DNA of 55,135 nucleotides from a virus. The translations under genes and the position numbers were made by a program. The stretch lies in UHGV virus genome UHGV-0258472; one strand, given 5' to 3'. A model generated the notes under the pieces. That model was not told the origin of the DNA, searched no databases, and saw nothing but the letters and a program-made list of their open reading frames with translations. Below, piece after piece: positions 14,845 through 29,098 of the stretch. Within the stretch, counting starts at the first letter, position 1. Every line of letters begins with the position of its first letter.

Positions 14845-15485
14845 TAACCCATCTCCCCGTTAAGCTCTGATTTTCTGATCTGGTATACGTCGCTCGCTTT
14901 CTGTCGTTGCTCTGAGTTTTCAGGTAATAACTTCCAGCATTTAGCAAAAATATCTTTAAGCGCTTTTTCGTCCTGCGCTTTCGCTGCCGCATCACAAAAA
15001 CGCGCTAACACCTCGTCAGGATTTGGCGGCGCTTTCTGCTGCTGTGGCTGTTGTTTTGGTTGGTTTTTCTGCTGGCGTGGCTGCTGACCTGTCTGCTTAG
15101 CGTATGCGTCAGTATCAGGATCTCGCGCATCATCAATGCAGAATAAGCCGTTCAAAGCATATTTTCGCGCGTAACTTGATGTCGCTCCTGTTAGCTGGCT
15201 TGCATCCATACCCTTCTTGCTTTCTTCCTCCCTGGCGTAAGCAGTTACCGCTATTACGTCTTCACCGTCGCTTAATGTTGCCGTGGCTTTCACATAATAT
15301 CGATTGCCGATCAGGACAATTTCATCACTTACAGTCAGCGTGATATTTTGAAGCAGTGGTTTAACCGCCTCTAGAATATCCTCCGCCGACCTGTAATTAT
15401 ACCCACCAAAATTATTACGCTGATTTTTCGGCGCGTTCAGCGTTTGCTGAATCGTCCATAACTTTTTATGTAACTCTGTTTTCAC
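14844..15485 (-). CDS. erf: Erf-family single-strand annealing recombinase
   Basis: N-terminal region (...LNAPKNQ...YRSAEDILEAVKPLL...IVLIGNRYYVKATAT...AREEESKKGMDASQ..TGATSSYARKY..NGLF.IDDA) matches P22 Erf; GTG start at 15485 with SD aaggag. Confidence 0.85.
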   Translation of the reverse strand: MKTELHKKLWTIQQTLNAPKNQRNNFGGYNYRSAEDILEAVKPLLQNITLTVSDEIVLIGNRYYVKATATLSDGEDVIAVTAYAREEESKKGMDASQLTGATSSYARKYALNGLFCIDDARDPDTDAYAKQTGQQPRQQKNQPKQQPQQQKAPPNPDEVLARFCDAAAKAQDEKALKDIFAKCWKLLPENSEQRQKASDVYQIRKSELNGEMG

Positions 15486-15604
15486 TATTTAATCTCCTTC
15501 GCTGTTAACACTACGTATAAGGCTTTATTCGCGGCGCTCCACATTTCGGCATCGTGAAGCATTTCCGCTACAGCTAGTTTGAATTGAAGCGCACGAATAA
15601 CCAT
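15485..15604 (-). CDS. small ORF (39 aa) whose 3' end supplies the Erf SD
   Basis: ATG at 15604 with SD ggaggtga preceded by the acaaaatgtaaac motif. Confidence 0.35.
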   Translation of the reverse strand: MVIRALQFKLAVAEMLHDAEMWSAANKALYVVLTAKEIK

Positions 15605-15634: not shown

Positions 15635-15925
15635 TTAATGGTAGCGGACTTTATCCAGTGGTTTTTCCCCTAGCTGACGTGGTTGCGTTGCGTGGTAGTA
15701 GTTGCCGCTTTCATTTTCCGTATACCATTTTACTGATCCTTTGCGACGTTCTTTAATGCTATTTGATTTGCATCTTTCCTCGTTTGCAAAGCGAATAGCT
15801 TTATCCACATTGTCTGTTTTATTAATTGCAGGTGATGATTTTCTTTCGTTTTCTCTTTTTATTCTTCTGCGTTCCCTGGCATTCAGTTTACTGTCACATT
15901 TGCCATACATGATTGTAACTGTCAT
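15635..15925 (-). CDS. hypothetical basic protein (96 aa)
   Basis: ATG at 15925 with SD aaggag; first gene after the large non-coding region. Confidence 0.45.
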   Translation of the reverse strand: MTVTIMYGKCDSKLNARERRRIKRENERKSSPAINKTDNVDKAIRFANEERCKSNSIKERRKGSVKWYTENESGNYYHATQPRQLGEKPLDKVRYH

Positions 15926-16406
15926 GATCTGATCTCCTTATATCCTTGATGATACTTAATAAAAAATCATCTTCGTTAATTGCCGCACTTCCAGCGGCTG
16001 ACCAGATTGTTAAAGAATGGCTTAACATCTTTCAACTAATCCCGCAATCATCGCCGTTTCCGGTGTGACCCTGCTCACTCCAAGCAAGCTGACTCGTCGC
16101 CTTGCGTGCGGTTTCGTGGGGGATGTGACGCTTTAGACACCCCATGCGCCTTGTTATCAGTGCCGCTTTCGGTCCCCCATCGGGGAGTTACTCCACGGTT
16201 GACAAGGTGTTAAGCCTGATTTTTAAAGTGCCAGGAAGGCGCTTTTTGTTTCCTGCCTCCTTCCTTTGATTCGCAATATACGCCCTGTGATATACCGAGT
16301 CAATCCATTTTGTATACTTTTTTAAAATATTTTATATATCATTGATATTTAAATTATAAAAACAGTTTTTTGGTTTACGTTTTGGTTATTTTACGGGCAA
16401 AGAAAG

Positions 16407-16422
16407 GCCGCCATCCGGCGGC
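16407..16422 (-). terminator. GC hairpin downstream of the repressor gene
   Basis: gccgccggatggcggc stem-loop on minus strand followed by ctttctttg. Confidence 0.4.
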
Positions 16423-16428
16423 TAATGT

Positions 16429-17076
16429 TTATGGCAGGTTTACGATCTTCGCGTCAACTACCACACCTATGATTTTAGATTCTGGATTCATAGGGATTGG
16501 CGGATACAGCGGATTGAGCGAACGTAAAAGCCTTTGACCTCCATCAATAACAAGCTGTTTAAACGTAGGTGTTTGCCCTTCCTCCAGTTGGGCTATAACC
16601 AGTTTTCCGTCAATAGCTGGCGCGTGCGGATCGACAAGTATCATCGTCCCCGCTGGTATACTCAATCCTTGCGGCGCGTTCATTGATTCGCCTTTAGCTA
16701 CCAGCCAATAACTATCATCTGAACAAATAACGCTAGTCGTAACGTGTGGTAATGTTGCTCGCCTTGTATCTTCCATATTGTTTACTGCGTCCTTCCAGTC
16801 AACAACCGGGTAACTACCTAAATCACGCGGCGGCGCTCCCGGTAATGTATTAGAAATAGAATCATCTATGACCATTCCATCGTGTGTAACAGTGAATTGC
16901 CGACGCCCAAGCGCCCGCATGATACGCGCAATATCTTCAAGATTCGGCTCGCGGCGACCGTTCAGCCAGTGTGACAGGCCGCCTTTAGTTATCCCCATGA
17001 GATCCGCGAGTGAATCCTGGCTCATGCCTTGCGCCCGCATGAGTTGCTTTGCTAAGTCGTACCATTTTGTTTTCAT
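16429..17076 (-). CDS. CI-type prophage repressor (XRE HTH plus LexA-like S24 peptidase domain)
   Basis: N-terminal HTH (SQDSLADLMGITKGGLSHWLNGRR) and C-terminal Ser-Lys autopeptidase region (GESM ... KQLVIDG); ATG at 17076. Confidence 0.85.
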   Translation of the reverse strand: MKTKWYDLAKQLMRAQGMSQDSLADLMGITKGGLSHWLNGRREPNLEDIARIMRALGRRQFTVTHDGMVIDDSISNTLPGAPPRDLGSYPVVDWKDAVNNMEDTRRATLPHVTTSVICSDDSYWLVAKGESMNAPQGLSIPAGTMILVDPHAPAIDGKLVIAQLEEGQTPTFKQLVIDGGQRLLRSLNPLYPPIPMNPESKIIGVVVDAKIVNLP

Positions 17077-17100
17077 ATCGCTACCCTATAACCTCAAAAA

Positions 17101-17200
17101 GTTTGACGCAAGTCACAAAACGTATTTTTCAAGCCTTGATCTTAAAACTCCATTCTGTAAACTTGCAGACAAGGTAAGGCCATACTTGCAAGGATGCAAG
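17101..17200. promoter_or_regulatory. candidate operator/promoter region between divergent repressor and rightward genes
   Basis: Repeated (A)CTTGCA(A)G-like half-sites (tgacgcaagtca, acttgcagac, acttgcaaggatgcaag) in the divergent intergenic region. Confidence 0.4.
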
Positions 17201-17380
17201 AAAAAAGATAATGGAAAGCACAAAAAGGCACATACCTTAAAAGCTCTTTAAAAATCCGGTGTCGCTGCGAAGCGAAAAACAAATATCACGCAACGGCGGG
17301 ATCTGTTGAGCGGTCAGTCACTGCTATCTAATGCTAATGGGATACCCGCCAGCGCGTTCACTCTAATCATAGGAGAAAAT

Positions 17381-17626
17381 ATGTATTACGTGCGCAAGGC
17401 TTTTGATATTCGCCTGAATAACAATGATCCGGCGCAAAAACTCATCTTAATTGCACTGGCAACAAAGGCCGGATGCAACGGTAAAAGCGAAGTAACGCCG
17501 GAAGAGATCGCTGAAATGTGCGAAATTTCGTTACGAGATACTATCTCTGCACTTCATCAACTGAAAAGAAGCGGCCTAATCAGCCAGCTACCGGGTTTTT
17601 TCTGTGTTTATCAGTTAATGTTTTAG
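17381..17626 (+). CDS. small HTH protein, paralogous to the N-terminus of the replication initiator; first rightward gene (possible Cro-like role)
   Basis: ATG at 17381 with SD aggag; KLILIALATKA...EEIAEMCEIS...LHQLKRSGLI parallels the N-terminus of 17633..18634. Confidence 0.5.
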   Translation: MYYVRKAFDIRLNNNDPAQKLILIALATKAGCNGKSEVTPEEIAEMCEISLRDTISALHQLKRSGLISQLPGFFCVYQLMF

Positions 17627-17632
17627 TTCGTC

Positions 17633-18634
17633 ATGAGGTTAATGCTTATGAGTATGCGGCTAATGGTAGAGGTATTCCATACTGAGGTCGGTGATCCAAT
17701 GCACAAACTAGTGCTGTTGAAGTTAGCTGATAACGCTAATGATAACGGCGAGTGTTACCCTTCTTACCATCACATAGCAAAGGAGTGTGAGATCAGCAAA
17801 AGAACAGCTATGAGGGCTGTAGACTCACTTTGTGAAAAAGGGTTGTTGATTAAACAACCAAGATACTTAATCGGAGGAAAAGAGCAAACTAGTAATTTCT
17901 ATGTAATAGTCCTTCCGTCATTGCATGGTAGTGTCACTGTGACACCGGGGGTAGTGACACAGAGTCACCAGGGTAGTGACACAGAGTCACCGGGGGTAGT
18001 GACACAGAGTCACCCTAACCAGTCATATATAACCAGTAAAGAGAACATTAAAGATATACCCCCTTATATCCCCCCAAAAGAAAAACATGTCAATCAGGAT
18101 GGCATAAACGAAGCGGCGTTGCGTTGCCTGGCCTTCTACAACGACAAGGCAGGATGCAAGTGTCGTGATGCTAAGCCATTCATCGAACTACTGACAGAAA
18201 CAAAAACACGTAAGGCATATACTGAGGATGAGATCACGTTAGTAATTGAGTGGGCTTTAACGCAATGGCGTAGCCGTGGTGGAACACCTAAGCCTATCAA
18301 CATTTGCAGGGTAACTAAGTTTGATGGGTATTTGGCTGATGCTGAACAATGGCGCAAGCTATCAGCTACTGTAAACGCTGCCGACGTGGTGGAAGCATTT
18401 AACAGCACGTTTGACGGCCTGTTACCACCTGCCGAACTGGATCGTGATCTTGAGCGCAAGATCTATGCGTTCACTGACTACCTGAAAGACAAAAGCATTA
18501 ACGGCTTTGTCGCCTACTTCGAAACGTTCAAAAACACGGCTTCAGATTTTTACTTCGGCAATGGCTTTACTGCGACACTTGATTTCCTGCTTAAACCAAA
18601 AACGCTACGTGATACACGCGCTGGCGCTCTTTGA
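17633..18634 (+). CDS. replication initiator protein containing the origin iterons
   Basis: N-terminal winged-HTH-like region; iterons embedded in the coding sequence as in lambda O; true start may be ATG 17699 (SD gaggt). Confidence 0.65.
   Translation: MRLMLMSMRLMVEVFHTEVGDPMHKLVLLKLADNANDNGECYPSYHHIAKECEISKRTAMRAVDSLCEKGLLIKQPRYLIGGKEQTSNFYVIVLPSLHGSVTVTPGVVTQSHQGSDTESPGVVTQSHPNQSYITSKENIKDIPPYIPPKEKHVNQDGINEAALRCLAFYNDKAGCKCRDAKPFIELLTETKTRKAYTEDEITLVIEWALTQWRSRGGTPKPINICRVTKFDGYLADAEQWRKLSATVNAADVVEAFNSTFDGLLPPAELDRDLERKIYAFTDYLKDKSINGFVAYFETFKNTASDFYFGNGFTATLDFLLKPKTLRDTRAGAL
17928..18014. repeat. origin iterons: one degenerate plus three exact copies of GTAGTGACACAGAGTCACC
   Basis: Copies at 17928-17946 (degenerate), 17951-17969, 17974-17992, 17996-18014; each carries an internal GTGAC/GTCAC inverted repeat; AT-rich segment follows. 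Confidence 0.7.
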
Positions 18635-18766
18635 CCACCCACGATCCGCAAAAAACAAAAATTACCCACAAAACAACCTCACCAGCGAACTAAATCGCAT
18701 ATGGTGCTACACTTGCTTACCTTTTGCGATTAGCTCGTTATAGAGCATTACAGAGAGGATTTTAAA

Positions 18767-18868
18767 ATGGACGGTAAACACGTTTTCGCCCTGGCTTTTG
18801 CCATCGCTGCGGCAATCGCTGTTAACGTCGCTTTGTTCGGCGGTTTGTACCTTCTCGTTAATCCATAA
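18767..18868 (+). CDS. small hydrophobic peptide (33 aa)
   Basis: ATG at 18767 with SD agagagga; Ala/Leu-rich single TM-like translation. Confidence 0.4.
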   Translation: MDGKHVFALAFAIAAAIAVNVALFGGLYLLVNP

Positions 18869-19009
18869 CCTACCTACCAGTCTGTAAATCGAAAATTAGC
18901 CACCTGATAGCGCCTCTGACGCAATAAGACACTGCAACCTGTGCAAACTGGTGTCGCGGTGGGATTTTTGCGTTGTAGCGCGTCTGAGGCGTTTTAAGGA
19001 GTTGGAACG

Positions 19010-19933
19010 ATGCGCAAGTTAACACATGATGAACATGTTGCGGCTATCGCTAAGGTTAATCATGATGTCGAAGTGCTTGGGGAAATTGTTAATAACAGGA
19101 CAAAAGTATCCTGCCGCTGCAAGGTTTGCAGTCACGAATGGTCGGCTAGACCTTACAATCTTAAAAGCGGTCACGGCTGCCCGAAATGCGCCGGAAAGAT
19201 GAAATTATCACACGAAGAACAGGTTGCCGCTATCGAGAAGGTTAATTCTGATGTCGAAGTGATTGGCGAAATAATAAACGGCTATACAAAAGCATTATGC
19301 CGCTGCAAAGTTTGTAATCACGAATGGTCGGCTAAACCTAACAACCTAAAAAACGGGCGCGGCTGCCCGAAATGTAAAGGTTTAAAAATCGCACAAAGAC
19401 GAACATTATCACACGAAGAACATTTATCCGCTATCACTAAGGTAAATCATGATATTGAAGTATTGGCAGAAATAATAAACGATAGGACAAAAGTATTATG
19501 TCGATGCAAGGTTTGTGATCATAAGTGGTCGCCTAGACCTTATGCTATTAAAAGCGGGCAAGGCTGCCCGAAATGTGCGAAACACGGTTTTTTGTCACAC
19601 GATTTCGGCAAACTTTACATCATGGTTGATGATCCTGAAGTGCCTACACAAATGAAAATCGGCGTAAGCGTTAATGAGAACAAGCGAAGAAATCGGGTAT
19701 TAAAAAGCGCACATAAATCAGGCGTTAGAATCCCTGATTTATGTGTCGTGAAAACGTTAGAAGGTCCAACCGAAAATATCCATGAATTAGAAAGCACGAT
19801 GCATAAATATTTCAGCAATTATAAAATTAACTTTCCTGTAAAATTTGATGGCAGCAATGAGTTTTTCTATTACAGGCCTGAAGTATTCGACATGGTAGAA
19901 GAAGCATATAAAGAGGTTGTTTGCTGCCAATGA
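19010..19933 (+). CDS. protein with three tandem zinc-ribbon repeats and a C-terminal T5orf172/GIY-YIG-like domain
   Basis: Three ~60-aa repeats each with CRCKVC ... GCPKC; C-terminal KLYIMVDD ... KIGVS ... NEFFYY resembling the GIY-YIG/T5orf172 pattern; ATG 19010 with SD aaggag. Confidence 0.6.
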   Translation: MRKLTHDEHVAAIAKVNHDVEVLGEIVNNRTKVSCRCKVCSHEWSARPYNLKSGHGCPKCAGKMKLSHEEQVAAIEKVNSDVEVIGEIINGYTKALCRCKVCNHEWSAKPNNLKNGRGCPKCKGLKIAQRRTLSHEEHLSAITKVNHDIEVLAEIINDRTKVLCRCKVCDHKWSPRPYAIKSGQGCPKCAKHGFLSHDFGKLYIMVDDPEVPTQMKIGVSVNENKRRNRVLKSAHKSGVRIPDLCVVKTLEGPTENIHELESTMHKYFSNYKINFPVKFDGSNEFFYYRPEVFDMVEEAYKEVVCCQ

Positions 19934-21103: not shown

Positions 21104-22525
21104 ATGGTGACTGAGCAAGTAAACTCATTACGCCAGGAACGTGAGGCGGCTGTGATAGGTGGCCTCCTGTTAGGCGGGCTTACTCCTAACGCGCAAGATG
21201 TTCTTGCTACGCTCGATCCTGAAGTCTTCACCATTCCACTATATAAACGAGCGTTTGAGATCATCCGGGCGCAAGCAAGAAACAGAAACCTTATTGACGC
21301 GCTGATGGTCGGTGATGAAATCGGTAACGAAAATTTTGTCCCGCTAATGCAGACGGCGCGATCGTGTCCATCTGCCGCCAACCTTAAGGGGTACGCCGCG
21401 CTATTACAGGAGGAATATCAGCGGCGGCAGATGTTGGAACTGATGGACGATATACGCTACAACCTGGAAAACGGGACACTTGAAGCTGTCAGGGAGACGA
21501 TGAAATATTTTGATTCCCGGTATTCAAAATTAAAAGTAACGAAAGACAAGATTATTCCGGTGCTGTTGCGCGACGCGGTACAGGAGTACACGGAAGTTTT
21601 AAGCAAACGTATGGAATGTGGTGTCAATTCTGACAATATCAAAACAGGGATAGATCCACTCGACGAAATGTTAGGCGGCATTAACGCTACTGATCTGGTA
21701 CTTATCGCCGGACGCCCTGGATCTGGTAAATCGGCGTTGGCGTTGGCAATTGCCCGCGCGGCGGCTGAACGTCCATACCCTGGCGGCGAAGGTCAACGGG
21801 TCGGCGTTTTGCTGTTCACGCTTGAAATGTCGCTAGATCAGATGACTGAACGCGCTATAGCTGGCGCTGGGAATTTATCAACGGATTGCCTACGTAATCC
21901 GGTAAAACTTGATGACGAAGGGTGGGCGCACGTTGCCCAGGGGATGAGCGCACTTGCCGATCTCGACGTGTGGATTGTTGACGCATCGCAATTGACAGTA
22001 GAGGAAATCCGCGCCACCACGGAACGGATGAAACAGGACCATCCCAACCTGGGAATGGTAATGATTGACTACATCGGGTTAATGAAGCTGGCTAAGGCCG
22101 AACGTCATGATCTCGCCGTAGGGCAATTGTCGTGGTCATTGAAAATGATGGCGAAAGAGTTGCGCGTGCCAGTGGCGGCGCTGGCGCAATTATCCCGCCG
22201 CGTTGAAGAACGACCGAACAAGCGCCCGAACAATTCCGATCTGCGTGATTCCGGTAATCTTGAACAAGACGCAGACCGGATCATCATGGTCTACCGCGAC
22301 GGCTACTACAACGAACAATCAGTTGCCCGCGAATACATGGAGATCATCGTTTCAAAAAACCGTCACGGGAAAACGGGGACTGTTTACCAGCGGTTTGACG
22401 ATAACGGCAACATTTTACCATGCGACCAGGCACGCGCGGCGTCAGCCTGCATACAGTCAATGCAACAACGTCCGGCAGCAAGCCGATTTTCCCCACGAAA
22501 TAACCAGAATAACGCATCTTTTTAA
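21104..22525 (+). CDS. DnaB-family replicative DNA helicase
   Basis: Walker A GRPGSGKS, DnaB-like N-terminal domain and RecA-like core motifs; ATG 21104. Confidence 0.85.
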   Translation: MVTEQVNSLRQEREAAVIGGLLLGGLTPNAQDVLATLDPEVFTIPLYKRAFEIIRAQARNRNLIDALMVGDEIGNENFVPLMQTARSCPSAANLKGYAALLQEEYQRRQMLELMDDIRYNLENGTLEAVRETMKYFDSRYSKLKVTKDKIIPVLLRDAVQEYTEVLSKRMECGVNSDNIKTGIDPLDEMLGGINATDLVLIAGRPGSGKSALALAIARAAAERPYPGGEGQRVGVLLFTLEMSLDQMTERAIAGAGNLSTDCLRNPVKLDDEGWAHVAQGMSALADLDVWIVDASQLTVEEIRATTERMKQDHPNLGMVMIDYIGLMKLAKAERHDLAVGQLSWSLKMMAKELRVPVAALAQLSRRVEERPNKRPNNSDLRDSGNLEQDADRIIMVYRDGYYNEQSVAREYMEIIVSKNRHGKTGTVYQRFDDNGNILPCDQARAASACIQSMQQRPAASRFSPRNNQNNASF

Positions 22526-24848: not shown

Positions 24849-25066
24849 TGGATAAGATCGGGACAATCCTTATTAATCGTGAGCAAGTGCAAAAAATGTT
24901 AGGCGGACTTAGCAAGTCCGCATTTTTTAAGCTCGTTAAAAAATGGAAAGATGCGGGAACTCCTTTCCCTGAACCTGTTAAGGGGATGCCAGCATTAAAG
25001 CGCGGCGGATCTCTTTACCGCTATCAGGACGTTATTTCATTTTGTAAATCAATGGGCTTCATGTAG
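24848..25066 (+). CDS. putative excisionase / AlpA-like small DNA-binding protein
   Basis: Small basic protein convergent with integrase; size and position typical of Xis/AlpA-type regulators. Confidence 0.4.
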   Translation: MDKIGTILINREQVQKMLGGLSKSAFFKLVKKWKDAGTPFPEPVKGMPALKRGGSLYRYQDVISFCKSMGFM

Positions 25067-26223
25067 TAATCAGCCAGTTTATTCATCGCCTCTATTTGCT
25101 CCTTCACGTAATCATACTGATCATATATAGCCATCATTCCCGCCAGTTTATGACCTAAAACCTTTTCTGCTACGTGCGGCGCAATGCCAAGCGCTGAAAG
25201 GTTTGTCCTTACAGTGCGGCGCAAGTCGTGACACGACCACGGCTCGCCGCCCATCCTTAGCATCAAATCCCTTGCGGCTGTTTTCGGCACGCTCCTGTCT
25301 ACCGCTTCATCCCTTCCAGAAAGCACGGGAACGAAGATAAAATTAAAGCCGTGCAAATCCATAGCTTCACGCAATAAATCAACGCTAACGGCGGATAAAC
25401 CGCGTTTAAACTCGTTTCTGTTCTTACTCAATGCGCCCGGCACGGTCCACACACAGTTATCAAGATCGAAATGCTCGCGCCTTGCGTTTGTTAGTTCGCT
25501 TGTTCTGCATCCGGTGAATATAATCAGCTTCATCAATATCTGATTTAGCCGCGCCATTTTTGAACTGTCTATAATGCTGATTAGATGGTGAATCTCTTGT
25601 ATTGATAAGACGCGTTTCCTTTGTGCCGGGTTTTTGCCTACGTCTTTCACGCGTAGCAATGATATGTCGTCACGCTCCACGCGGCGGCGGCGCATGGCAT
25701 ATTTTATCACCGCCTTCATCCTGTTTAAGACTATCCCTGCCTGAACGGGCGCGCCACCATTAGCTACCTTTCTAAAAATACCCTCCCACATTATGGAGTC
25801 CATATCATCGACGATATAGCTACCGCATGGTCTGACAATGTGCTTACTTAGCATCGCCTCGACTTGCTTATAGTTGACCATGTTTCTTGCCTGCGGTGAT
25901 TCCATGTACTCCCTAACAATATCTTCAATCGTTGCCCGTGTCGTAACGCGGGAAAAGTTCATTCTTTTTACGATCGATGGATCTCGTCCTGAGTTTAAGA
26001 CTTCCTTATGCTCCGCCACCGCCGCGCGGGCTTCTTTGAGCGTTATTTCTCCGTAAGTGCCAATCTTCATCCGTCGCGGCTTGCCGTTGAATCGGTAGCG
26101 ATACTGGAAAGATATAACGCCGTGCGGGCTTATCCTGGCAGACAATCCGCCCGCGTCCGGGACTTCTTCCGGGCCGTCATATGGCTTGCCGTGGATGTTT
26201 CGTAATTTGGTATCTGTAAGCAT
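25024..26223 (-). CDS. int: tyrosine site-specific integrase
   Basis: C-terminal catalytic region with R ... HDLRRT ... Y; N-terminal arm-binding-like domain; start set at ATG 26223 (ORF-track 26292 is GTG). Confidence 0.8.
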   Translation of the reverse strand: MLTDTKLRNIHGKPYDGPEEVPDAGGLSARISPHGVISFQYRYRFNGKPRRMKIGTYGEITLKEARAAVAEHKEVLNSGRDPSIVKRMNFSRVTTRATIEDIVREYMESPQARNMVNYKQVEAMLSKHIVRPCGSYIVDDMDSIMWEGIFRKVANGGAPVQAGIVLNRMKAVIKYAMRRRRVERDDISLLRVKDVGKNPAQRKRVLSIQEIHHLISIIDSSKMARLNQILMKLIIFTGCRTSELTNARREHFDLDNCVWTVPGALSKNRNEFKRGLSAVSVDLLREAMDLHGFNFIFVPVLSGRDEAVDRSVPKTAARDLMLRMGGEPWSCHDLRRTVRTNLSALGIAPHVAEKVLGHKLAGMMAIYDQYDYVKEQIEAMNKLADYYMKPIDLQNEITS

Positions 26224-26227
26224 AAAT

Positions 26228-26479
26228 TTGGTCACTATTTGGTACACACATTTCACGCATGGATAGTAACACGATAGAAAACGATATGACACGATAGAAT
26301 AAATATTTCTTTTAAAATCAAGGTGAAACGGTGACGATGTGACACGATATGAAATGATAGAAATGGCGTTATCCGCTTATCTTTTGAATGGATAACTTAA
26401 TGAAAAATTCATTTGTATTCAATGTGTTATGTTTTGTTTTTGTTTTTTATTTATCATTTTGGTCACTATTTGGTACACA
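26228..26479. other. candidate attP region
   Basis: 21-bp direct repeat TTGGTCACTATTTGGTACACA at 26228-26248 and 26459-26479; ACACGATAGAA-like repeats between; inverted GTTATCC ... GGATAAC at 26368-26396; directly upstream of int. Confidence 0.4.
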
Positions 26480-26536
26480 AAAAGAAACGAGGCGTTAGCC
26501 TCGTTTCGCGCGGCGATGTTCTTCGCACATCACCTC

Positions 26537-29098
26537 TTATTCTTCGCTTCCGGTCAACTGCCTGACAAGCGCTTCAAGTTTAGTGATCCGCTCATCCATG
26601 AAGGCAATGTTAGCTCGTAAGCTGGCGTTTTCTTCCTCCAGTTCGGTGACGCGGTTATCTGTTTCGCGTGCAACCTGGACAAGTAAACCAGTCACAGCCG
26701 CGTAGTCAACATTGAGGTAACGCGTTTCTTCGCGTAGCTCGTTGCCGTCAGTGGTCGGGCCTTGTAACTCTTTACCGTAATGAGTAAACGATCCTACTGC
26801 TTCCGGTAGCGCCTCCATTACCTCCTGAGCGATAACGCCAGCGTAAGGCAGACCATTTTCCTTAAGCGTGTAGGTGTACCCGTTCATTTTACGGATAGCT
26901 TCAGTGGCATCACCTATAACCTGAATGTTGTCTTTCAAGTCGCGGTCAGATGATTGTATTACCGTTATGCAACTAACGGAACCTGGAATATTAAAATTAA
27001 CAGAATTGTCCGTGTTAAGCTGGCAATAAAAACCATATCCATTAGCAGCGCCGGTACTGGGGTCAGCAAATCCATACTCAAAAACCGATGGTCTTGAGTC
27101 CGATCCCCATAAATGTAAACGTGAGTTTACTTTTACGTTCTCTGATACACCAAGCGTCAATTTTCTTGTGAAATCATAAGAGTTAATGAACGATGAAACA
27201 AAATTCTGTGAGGCTGTCCATTTATTAGAATCGCTAAGCGTAGCCAGTTGGCGCCATCCTTTATCTACTCCGGCCTCAAAACTTCTGGCGAAGAATTTTG
27301 AATTTCGCCCGGCGAATTGGGTAGCGTAATTACCGCTAAATTGAGCATGGAATCCGCCAACAACCATTGTCCCATCGGGGCCGTTAATAGATCCAGCCAA
27401 CGGTTTAAACTTATTTACGTTATCTGAATGCTGACCATTCCAGTCGTTGCCAGTCTGTGTAAGTAGACCACCAGGAACGCTAAGAGTACCATCACCATTA
27501 AAATTAAAAAACATATGGTTTGATGCGGTCATGTCGCGAACAACAATTTGCGCGGCTTTTTCTGCTGCCCTGAACTCTGACTGATCAAGAGTCTGATTAG
27601 AAGCGGCATTGGTGCGCCTTGATATAAATGTCCTGTTGGTTACGTCCTCGCCATATGCAATAAATCCTTTAGTACAATTAATCGCACCTAAAACCGTGAA
27701 TGACGGCAGCGTAACGATAAACGGATCCGACGAATTCAATTTATTGGTGAGCGCAAAATTTGGTGAATATCCTTGTCTGAATATAGCGTTACTATAAAAA
27801 CCTGAACCGCCACCAGTAAAATCAAGAACGTTAAGAACGTTGTTTTCTGCGTTACCCTCTTCTGATGTGGATACGCCAAATTTGAATTTTACCCCGTTTG
27901 TTCCCAAAGAATAATCACCAGTCGGCACTACTACTTTTGCTTTATATCCCACCTGGATTTTAATTGGAAATGCTTTATTGCTTACATAAAAAGCTACATG
28001 TTGAGCGTAGTCTTTAGCTGATGCCTTAACGCAAAGTATAGCAACCTCGGTTGGCTCATATGCAGCATAGTACCCATACGCTATATTTTTGATGTCTGAC
28101 CAGCCACCGCATCTTACATATCCTGAAAACGTGTTGCTGTTCATTTCTGAAGCGGCACTACCGCCAACAGTTACAATTTCAACCGGACACGGAAAACTCC
28201 CTGCCCCGTTTGTTTCACCAGTGAACACGATTATAGGATAGTATTTCCCATCTTCCATGCCAGATGGTGCGCTTATGGTTATCGTTTTTGATAAACCACC
28301 TTCAGGGATCTGAAGATTTGTTTTTGCATCATCAAGCGACGTTGCACCAGTGCCGCCAGTAAGAATTGGAAGCGGTAGCCATTTACTAGCCTCTGAGTCG
28401 TAATAACCCCACGATCCTGAATCATAGACGGTAAGGAATTTATTTGCGTTTTGAGCGCATACGCGAGTTTCTCCTGTTCTTTGAACAAGCCTGTCTACTT
28501 CATTTTTTCTTGCGTGACGTGTCCAGTTAGCGCCTGATGTAGAAACCCATGTATACGTATAAAGTGATCGCGTAGCCCAACCAACAAATACGCCTGTATA
28601 TGAAGGCGTGCCGTCTCGTTGACAGATGAATCCACTTAAAAAGGATTCTCCAGCCGCTACAGCAGGAAAACCAGTGGCTGTTTCCTTTATGCGCAAAAAG
28701 CCAACGTAAGAAGACGGATCGCCTGATATATCAATGCAATCTCGCGGCGCTGGGCCTAAACCAATATTACTACCGTCTATTGCACTGGATATTTCGTCCT
28801 CTTTTTCCTGATAAAAACGAAGTGTTTCAGCTACGTCCTGAGCAAGACCATCAACTGAGATCGAGTCAGAAAGCAGAATACTGAATTTTGTCCCGGCAGC
28901 GATGGCAGGATTAGCCGCTGGCGTCACTGATAATTCAGTACCGCTCTTAATTTCTGTGATGGTAAAGATCTGGATAGGATTGCTAATGGCAATTAGCGTG
29001 CACCCTACACGGATGAGAGAAAGCGGTGCGGAAAAGTTTGTTCCCGTACCTGTAACAGTATTGCCGCTAATGGCAATTGTTCCCGTTGTATAAATCAT
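26537..29098 (-). CDS. side tail fiber / tailspike with C-terminal S74-type intramolecular chaperone domain
   Basis: 853 aa; C-terminal SDRDLKDNI ... NGYTYTLKENG ... GVIAQEV motif typical of self-cleaving chaperone domains; ATG 29098 with SD. Confidence 0.65.
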   Translation of the reverse strand: MIYTTGTIAISGNTVTGTGTNFSAPLSLIRVGCTLIAISNPIQIFTITEIKSGTELSVTPAANPAIAAGTKFSILLSDSISVDGLAQDVAETLRFYQEKEDEISSAIDGSNIGLGPAPRDCIDISGDPSSYVGFLRIKETATGFPAVAAGESFLSGFICQRDGTPSYTGVFVGWATRSLYTYTWVSTSGANWTRHARKNEVDRLVQRTGETRVCAQNANKFLTVYDSGSWGYYDSEASKWLPLPILTGGTGATSLDDAKTNLQIPEGGLSKTITISAPSGMEDGKYYPIIVFTGETNGAGSFPCPVEIVTVGGSAASEMNSNTFSGYVRCGGWSDIKNIAYGYYAAYEPTEVAILCVKASAKDYAQHVAFYVSNKAFPIKIQVGYKAKVVVPTGDYSLGTNGVKFKFGVSTSEEGNAENNVLNVLDFTGGGSGFYSNAIFRQGYSPNFALTNKLNSSDPFIVTLPSFTVLGAINCTKGFIAYGEDVTNRTFISRRTNAASNQTLDQSEFRAAEKAAQIVVRDMTASNHMFFNFNGDGTLSVPGGLLTQTGNDWNGQHSDNVNKFKPLAGSINGPDGTMVVGGFHAQFSGNYATQFAGRNSKFFARSFEAGVDKGWRQLATLSDSNKWTASQNFVSSFINSYDFTRKLTLGVSENVKVNSRLHLWGSDSRPSVFEYGFADPSTGAANGYGFYCQLNTDNSVNFNIPGSVSCITVIQSSDRDLKDNIQVIGDATEAIRKMNGYTYTLKENGLPYAGVIAQEVMEALPEAVGSFTHYGKELQGPTTDGNELREETRYLNVDYAAVTGLLVQVARETDNRVTELEEENASLRANIAFMDERITKLEALVRQLTGSEE

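Follow-up and report, generated by a model that had tools for sequence, protein, structure and literature searches.

A putative theta-type origin inside the initiator gene of an mEp021-group coliphage, and an independently assorting winged-helix gene upstream of it

An origin of replication inside the initiator gene is a textbook arrangement. In Salmonella phage P22, cro and c1 lie upstream of gene 18, which encodes an initiator with an internal origin, and the phage carries a DnaB-type helicase (gene 12) and no loader of the lambda P type. In iteron plasmids (R6K pi variants, CopG-RepB of pMV158), initiation is tuned by a truncated initiator or a small DNA-binding protein whose gene accompanies or precedes rep; the targets of these regulators are the resident iterons or the rep promoter, with which they co-evolve. 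Lambdoid origins consist of iterons and an AT-rich tract midway through the O gene, with 4 iterons in lambda and 6 in Stx phages, and a minimal origin comprises 2 iterons plus the AT-rich tract (PMC7466680). Cloned ori-lambda fragments exclude rep-lambda phages, initiation being silenced in trans in an origin-type-specific manner (Hayes et al. 2012, PMC3349717). The mEpimmI phages are non-lambdoid, Nus-dependent and have one immunity group in common; immunity through the repressor Rep021 was demonstrated experimentally, N-like antitermination depends on Gp17 and three nut sites, nutL lies upstream of the repressor gene, and the phages are as prevalent as lambdoid phages in human faecal samples (PMC11893012). 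Here, the initiator gene of virus genome UHGV-0258472 and the small gene just upstream of it were analyzed in a stretch of 55,135 nucleotides (the window). The window has ~90% nucleotide identity to the non-lambdoid coliphages mEp021 and mEp010, and the phage is a temperate Escherichia coli phage of the mEp021 group.

The combined reading favored here, with moderate confidence, is that positions 17927-18075 form a theta-type origin in the linker of the initiator gene, and that the upstream gene of 81 amino acids (aa) is an independent cassette, tied neither to the repressor and its operators nor to the resident iterons. The anatomy of the repeat array and its co-variation with the initiator can be read directly from the sequences. 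Coordinates are collected in Table 1.

Iterons and an unstable tract inside the initiator gene

At 17927-18014, Tandem Repeats Finder reported a 23-nt unit repeated 3.9 times (score 134); no other short-period tandem array in the window is as large. The 19-mer GTAGTGACACAGAGTCACC was present exactly at 17951, 17973 and 17996, against a chance expectation of 0.01 matches, and three exact copies were reached in 0 of 100 shuffles. The first copy, GTAGTGTCACTGTGACACC (17928-17946), is a variant and the better palindrome (GTGTCAC-T-GTGACAC). Taken as 20-mers (GGTAGTG-N10-ACC), the units start at 17927, 17950, 17972 and 17995, with a spacing of 23/22/23. These counts bear out an earlier note on this DNA, made from the letters alone, which had described four repeats with a GTGAC/GTCAC dyad, one of them degenerate, within the initiator gene. 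The array is in frame and codes for aa 94-123 of the 328-aa initiator, with the HTH_36 domain upstream and the C-terminal domain common to the relatives from 18104. An AT-rich stretch after the iterons, likewise claimed in that note, was recovered by duplex stability: the least stable 40-mer of 17000-19000 was 18018-18057, directly 3' of the last iteron, with a GC content of 27.5% (window mean 45.9%) and a stability within the lowest 0.65% of the window.

For comparison, 58 related loci were collected, which are related and thus not independent, and iterons were typed in the 17 loci with an HTH_36-type initiator. The array was at the same place in 17/17 loci, with 23/22/23 spacing throughout and 2, 4 or 6 copies, the frame being kept. 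Three iteron types were found, each with its own recognition helix in the initiator: the dyad GTGAC-N5-GTCAC with CEISKRTAMRAVDSL (KR variant), GTGTC-N5-GACAC with CEI(S/G)KSTAMRA(V/I)DAL ((S/G)KS variant), and GTGGC-N5-GCAAC with CEINKSTAMRAIEAL (NKS variant). Iteron type and helix variant were concordant in all 17 loci. The A-to-T difference between iterons was mirrored in both half-sites of every copy, as would be expected if a dimer-binding site and its protein evolved together. The three pairs constitute a natural specificity series, from which a recognition code between winged helix and DNA might be derived.

In a further 39 loci, the N-terminal domain of the initiator was replaced by a Lin1244/DUF4373 domain (Pfam 5.5e-11), with the C-terminal ~185 residues remaining homologous (72-94% identity). 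At the equivalent linker position these genes hold other iterons, GGTCATGA (GGTCATGAnnG) in four copies with an 11-bp period, followed by an A-rich tract. In the UMNK88 prophage (L003, 4453-4535) the four GGTCATGAnnG copies are followed by GAATTAGAAGAA repeats, and two loci with a Lin domain only 75% identical (L050 and L054) have 4-5 copies of CCATGGCACAA instead. The common C-terminal domain of the Lin1244-type genes begins right after the array. Since the iterons change with the N-domain variant, N-domain and iterons move as a unit, separate from the C-domain module; in the window the two modules meet at ~18104. Dyads, linker position, adjacent unstable DNA, helix co-variation and joint replacement with the N-domain together uphold the lambda O/ori-like arrangement proposed in the earlier note.

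It was also considered that the repeats are a slippage-prone tandem repeat coding for a flexible linker, with the origin elsewhere. The repeats are translated, their copy number changes in 45-bp steps (each unit pair adds 15 codons), and one prophage has a frameshift just downstream of them. However, identical consecutive iterons are translated in different frames (VVTQSH vs. GSDTES) because 22 and 23 are not multiples of three, so that selection is on the DNA and not on a peptide repeat. The dyads are maintained through symmetric changes that co-vary with the recognition helix, a non-homologous array stands at the same place in the Lin1244-type genes, and the least stable DNA adjoins the repeats. 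No second iteron cluster was found in the 55-kb window, the only other short-repeat cluster being an att-like region (26222-26500). Slippage without origin function is therefore highly improbable.

The initiator gave a Pfam HTH_36 (PF13730) match of 55.1 bits, above the 25-bit gathering threshold, and no match to Phage_rep_O (PF04492, gathering threshold 28.7 bits) at E ≤ 0.1; NCBIfam and Protein Data Bank (PDB) sequence searches returned no matches. Its homologues in mEp021 and mEp010 are annotated as replication protein. The C-domain and the C-terminus of the Lin1244-type protein from UMNK88 were 94% identical in aa sequence, and PHROG 345 gave an O-like C-terminal match. By analogy, the initiator would be O-like in its working while standing outside the O family, and would resemble P22 gp18 given the phage's own DnaB helicase. 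In-frame ATGs are present at 17633, 17642 and 17648, and ATG 17648, which has GAGG plus 9 nt upstream and is conserved in relatives, is most likely the one used, rather than 17633. In the prophage of E. coli strain 190 (L004), one C is missing from a C6 run equivalent to 18070-18075, just past the AT-rich tract. This frameshift leaves the initiator in two pieces, one of 157 aa and one a C-terminal open reading frame (ORF); either the prophage is defective or the sequence contains an error.

By analogy with lambda O/ori-lambda and P22 genes 18/12, origin firing may be pictured as follows. Dimers of the N-terminal winged helix would bind the four dyad-symmetric iterons, and the resulting nucleoprotein complex would open the adjacent AT-rich tract. 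The C-domain would then bring in the phage DnaB-type helicase, a recruiting role likewise assigned by analogy. Early transcription from the control region, made resistant to terminators through a nut site, would express the operon and cross the origin. The analysis yields a concrete origin prediction for the mEpimmI group, where none had been described.

The winged-helix gene upstream of the initiator

The small protein aligned with the initiator in BLASTP at 37% identity over 59 aa (E 3e-10). The aligned initiator residues were 21-79 counted from ATG 17633, or 16-74 from ATG 17648. The paralogy to the N-terminus of the initiator that had been claimed for it thus holds. The protein matched PHROG 4617 'replication initiation protein' (2.3e-10) and scored below the cut-offs for HTH_36 (20.4 of 25 bits) and Phage_rep_O (13.8 of 28.7 bits). 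Between the window and mEp010 the gene differed by 11 synonymous and 0 non-synonymous substitutions, and the ratio of non-synonymous to synonymous rates (dN/dS) was 0-0.11 over all type A pairs (defined below), indicating strong purifying selection. An AlphaFold2 model built with an alignment reached a predicted local distance difference test score (pLDDT) of 90.3 and contained a complete winged helix: helices 2-9 and 17-29, a strand at 35-37, helix 40-47, the recognition helix 51-64 and a hairpin (67-69/76-79). Compared with the N-domain of the initiator, the protein has a shorter wing loop, and its recognition helix has largely lost the basic residues (SLRDTISALHQL vs. SKRTAMRAVDSL), with 0-1 of them against 3 (K, R, R) in the initiator. 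'Truncated', the earlier description of this paralog, does not fit what the model and alignment predict, a complete stand-alone winged helix with a shortened wing.

Searches placed few proteins near it. Foldseek against the PDB returned only generic winged-helix DNA binders (E ≥ 7e-3), which do not discriminate between roles, and a PDB sequence search gave no match. The 7 clusters recovered by a word-index search all belonged to this phage group. Exhaustive phmmer against 1.84 billion representative proteins gave 4 matches, among them a spurious low-complexity protein, a type C allele and a Firmicute double-HTH initiator (37% identity). Short HTH_36 proteins from metagenomes (P0030, P0031 and P0037) were considered as stand-alone paralogues and rejected, as they came from error-fragmented assemblies and are probably split initiators.

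The related loci were sorted by the small gene and the initiator that accompany each other. Type A, with the 81-aa gene and an HTH_36 initiator, comprised 11 loci, including the window, mEp021, mEp010 and mEp013. Type B, with an HTH_36 initiator and no small gene, comprised 5. Type C, with a winged-helix gene of 84-85 aa (~37% identical to the type A protein) and a Lin-type initiator, comprised 38, including mEp515 and MagusPhagus, and one other locus had a Lin-type initiator without a small gene. The gene was thus missing from 6/58 loci, full-length contigs of 53-54.5 kb among them, while all seven isolated phages have a small winged-helix gene in this slot. Relative to the window, type B loci lack exactly 17376-17634 (259 bp, RBS, or ribosome-binding site, plus gene), and in type C the similarity ends at the start codon of the small gene. 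Sixteen distinct small proteins were found in type C. Nucleotide diversity was 0.18-0.27 in the codons for the helix-turn-helix and wing, whereas the Lin domain, the control region and the repressor gene had values of ~0.05. Between allele classes, dS was saturated, consistent with old divergence, and dN/dS was 0.13-0.35, again purifying selection (pairs with 85-aa alleles were out of register and ignored). No allele-class-specific 11-mers were found within 2.5 kb on either side for classes A, C1 and C2. Taken together, the 81-aa gene is best read as a functional, independently assorting descendant of the origin-binding domain of an initiator. Across 78 loci of other species, a second winged-helix ORF within 3 kb was clear in 0 and weak in 1 (E 2e-3); the pairing of a stand-alone winged-helix paralogue with an initiator is unusual. 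In three type B loci (L009, L010 and L017), a different winged-helix gene of 77 aa (MarR_2/HTH_36-like) follows the initiator, and it may be a functional substitute for the upstream small gene.

Two roles had been put forward for the small protein in the earlier note. One was competition for initiator sites; as elaborated here, the protein would compete with or poison the resident initiator at its own iterons, by binding DNA or forming inactive heterodimers, and would set replication frequency as a truncated plasmid Rep does. It is a paralogue of the origin-binding domain without the C-terminal domain, its N-terminal helices are conserved with those of the initiators, and its gene is co-transcribed with the initiator gene, the protein likely being made in excess given the stronger RBS. 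However, an identical small protein occurs beside three types of iteron and recognition helix, and the basic residues of the initiator helix are not kept. Related small alleles accompany Lin1244-type initiators, which have another N-domain and unrelated iterons, and there the iterons change with the Lin domain, independently of the small allele. As the small protein is not tied to the resident iteron type, competition at this origin is very unlikely.

The other was that of a Cro-like regulator, here taken as a second repressor, made first from the early promoter, which shuts off the repressor gene and early transcription through the control region. The small gene occupies the cro slot, to judge from homologous initiators elsewhere: in the 78 loci, from other gammaproteobacterial species and with the same initiator type, the one or two upstream genes encoded Cro (YdaS, P22_Cro, HTH_3), CII (YdaT, CP76, Phage_CII) or Ant/Rha. 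A small winged-helix gene fills that slot in every isolated phage. The gene is first in the operon divergent from the repressor gene and has a strong RBS, and no other ORF separates the control region from the initiator. The overall layout mirrors that of lambda, in that the opposite strand carries N-like, Kil-like, Erf and SSB genes downstream of the repressor. The absence of a separate Cro-like gene, also noted earlier, was confirmed, with no Cro/CII-type ORF between the repressor gene and the initiator. Nevertheless, a Cro must share operators with the repressor, and here repressor and control region are nearly invariant while the small alleles vary or vanish. Allele classes with unrelated recognition helices (SLRDTISALHQL, PLHTTVDALNSL, PVHTVHDAFAAL and PVNTVMVAIDGL) are found next to operator DNA that hardly differs and repressors with 92-99% identity; in the UMNK88 prophage, for example, the control region nearly matches that of the window, but the small protein is only 37% identical. 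No intergenic column tracked the allele class (maximum 0.8 of 2.24 bits, except for columns adjoining the start codon, up to 1.22), and all these phages form one immunity group, whereas the small gene changes class or disappears, being missing from 6 of the 58 loci. The protein matched none of the Cro families (lambda Cro, P22_Cro/YdaS, HTH_3), and its fold is a winged helix. A functional Cro is unlikely on this evidence, and the small protein is probably neither a classical Cro nor a competitor at this origin. The group accordingly combines a lambda-like layout and N-type antitermination with no recognizable Cro or CII; either its switch works without a classical Cro or the cassette does something new.

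An origin-binding ancestry without the recruiting domain, early strong expression, the lack of the gene in ~10% of genomes and variation in recognition helix and wing suggest an accessory specificity factor, not a core component of switch or replication. Tentatively, the protein could be a trans-acting specificity factor in lytic growth, for example one that interferes with the replication of rival phages, the leading guess among specific roles, though one of rather low probability; action on some other target or partner is at least as likely as interference with rivals. Doubtful is the bolder proposal of a diversifying weapon, an orphaned origin-binding domain that would block the origins or initiators of co-resident or co-infecting relatives. 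The group has one immunity type, yet at least five origin specificities and at least five allele classes of the small protein, which would fit such a weapon, as would the concentration of small-gene variation in recognition helix and wing.

Several points weigh against the combined reading of origin and independent cassette, or against the interference role. All inferences are comparative and drawn from sequence. At 27.5% GC, the tract after the iterons is only modestly AT-rich, and a flanking palindrome of the lambda kind was not seen. Linkage contributes to the concordance of helix and iterons, because the sites are only ~150-250 bp apart in related genomes. The cro-slot position, in a group without another Cro or CII candidate and with no other family-matching ORF between repressor gene and initiator, keeps the Cro role alive. 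With 0-1 basic residues in its recognition helix, DNA binding by the small protein is uncertain, and the scans of the control region and of 2.5 kb on either side turned up no target for it. Among the 1.84 billion representative proteins, no full-length initiator was >40% identical to the small protein, which weakens the idea of a mimic of rival initiators. The association of type A alleles with HTH_36 initiators and of type C alleles with Lin-type initiators can be explained by missing homology for crossovers. The published description of the group mentions neither iterons nor gp13 or gp14 (PMC11893012).

Phage group and locus layout

Region 16400-18900 had 89-94% nucleotide identity to the coliphages mEp021, mEp010, mEp013, mEp044, mEp554, mEp515 and MagusPhagus (n = 7), and prophage matches to it were present in 35 of 5426 complete E. 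coli genomes. The gene homologous to 16429..17076 is annotated as a repressor in the mEp021 and mEp010 records. The control region contains CAAG/CTTG palindromes (17129-17139, 17162-17173 and 17185-17200), a -10-like GATAAT (17207-17212), a boxA-like GCTCTTTAAAAA (17243-17254) and the hairpin TCGCTGCGAAGCGA (17262-17275), a candidate nutL. Promoter and nut assignments in 17077-17380 were made by eye and from the published statement on nutL (PMC11893012). A consensus promoter scan called no + strand promoter in the control region, so the early promoter assignment is inferred. A TTGCAA/TAATGG pair, picked by eye as -35/-10, was rejected as weak; GATAAT makes the better -10, yet with a 15-bp spacer.

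Past the far end of the repressor gene lie a promoter-like site (16303-16275) and a boxA-like element, together with genes resembling N and Kil, Erf and SSB. The layout is lambda-style: N <- PL, cI <- PRM / PR -> 'cro slot' -> initiator. Within 16150-16430 (- strand), the promoter-like sequence is TTGACT-17-TATATT (16303-16275), after the repressor terminator (16406-16423) and before the boxA-like CTTTAAAAATC (16218-16228), a motif found again at 17246-17256 on the + strand. No copy of the CTTGCAAG-type palindromes was seen at this promoter-like site. The 39-aa ORF 15485-15604 (- strand) matched Pfam Lambda_Kil at E 4.7e-5, below the family cut-off, and the 96-aa ORF beside it (15635-15925) weakly matched the N antitermination peptide family.

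An endonuclease-like gene and then an exonuclease-like gene lie between initiator and helicase. ORF 19010-19933 has three tandem repeats of ~190 nt, each a zinc-ribbon (DUF4379/CapR) unit, followed by a T5orf172 (GIY-YIG-like) domain, and resembles a homing endonuclease. Relatives have Rha, Ant or other genes in its place, after the initiator and ahead of the exonuclease-like gene. In the 375-bp spacer 3' of the initiator gene, a hydrophobic 33-aa ORF with an RBS, MDGKHVFALAFAIAAAIAVNVALFGGLYLLVNP, was seen at 18768-18866, and the mEp010 annotation has an ORF of equal length in the corresponding place. Next comes a long imperfect hairpin (~18911-18985); the fold of the 18640-19010 spacer was not more stable than shuffles (z = -0.8), and an Rfam scan of 15900-19100 gave 0 matches.

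The att-like region 26222-26500 is intergenic between two minus-strand ORFs, 25024-26292 (probably an integrase) and 26537-29098. Within it are repeats of ~10 bp (ACGATAGAA/ACGATATGA) as well as two copies, at 26228 and 26459, of the 22-bp direct repeat TTTGGTCACTATTTGGTACACA. Its repeats at 26262-26365 were considered as a second origin and rejected, since they look like att arm sites; the region looks like an attP with arm-type sites rather than a second origin.

Table 1. Positions of the features discussed, in window coordinates
Feature	Position	Strand	Remarks
CI-like repressor gene (mEp021 gp15/Rep021 homologue)	16429..17076	-	Pfam Peptidase_S24 2.4e-19, HTH_3 3.3e-13
Divergent control region, 304 bp	17077..17380	.	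nearly invariant in 56 loci
Small winged-helix gene, 81 aa (mEp021 gp14 homologue)	17381..17626	+	RBS AGGAG 17371-17375
Replication initiator gene, 328 aa (mEp021 gp13 homologue)	17648..18634	+	HTH_36 6.5e-15; PHROGs 428, 8540, 391, 345 'replication initiation (O-like)'
Initiator N-terminal winged-helix domain, presumed iteron binder	17648..17923	+	recognition helix CEISKRTAMRAVDSL; helix variant co-varies with iteron type
Iteron 1, GGTAGTGTCACTGTGACACC	17927..17946	+	variant; dyad GTGTCAC/GTGACAC
Iteron 2, GGTAGTGACACAGAGTCACC	17950..17969	+	dyad GTGAC/GTCAC
Iteron 3	17972..17991	+	DNA identical to iteron 2, other reading frame
Iteron 4	17995..18014	+	same DNA as iterons 2 and 3
AT-rich low-stability tract, candidate DNA-unwinding element	18015..18075	+	conserved in all HTH_36-type relatives as CTAAyCAGTCATATATAACCAGTAAAGAG
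Initiator C-terminal domain, common to Lin1244-type initiators, presumed helicase-recruiting	18104..18631	+	similarity to type C loci resumes at 18104
Phage DnaB-family replicative helicase gene	21104..22525	+	TIGR00665 7.4e-97; TIGR03600 phage_DnaB 3.3e-84

Comparison with described systems

The direct homologues are mEp021 gp13 and gp14 (~89% nucleotide identity), annotated as 'putative replication protein' and 'HTH, MarR-like', respectively; repressor, nut site and layout are in common. Unlike the window, mEp021 has the iteron type GTGGCA..GCAACC and the recognition helix CEINKSTAM. With lambda and Stx O-ori the locus shares the mid-gene origin and the dyad-symmetric iterons of ~19 bp followed by an AT-rich tract, and with lambda also the division into an N-terminal DNA-binding and a C-terminal recruiting domain and the operon read from an early promoter divergent from the repressor gene. 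In contrast to lambda, the initiator here matches HTH_36 only and not Phage_rep_O, the iteron sequence is unrelated, a DnaB helicase of the phage's own stands in place of a P-type loader, and there is no cro or cII but a winged-helix paralogue in the cro slot. P22 is similar in pairing an internal-origin initiator with a phage DnaB-family helicase, a likeness drawn from the layout; it differs in that here endonuclease-like and exonuclease-like genes lie between initiator and helicase. Unlike the regulators of iteron plasmids, the small gene is decoupled from the resident iterons and from the control region. Exclusion by ori-lambda fragments is a precedent, of a different kind, for the interference guessed for the small protein; it needs iteron DNA and oop RNA and not a protein decoy (PMC3349717).

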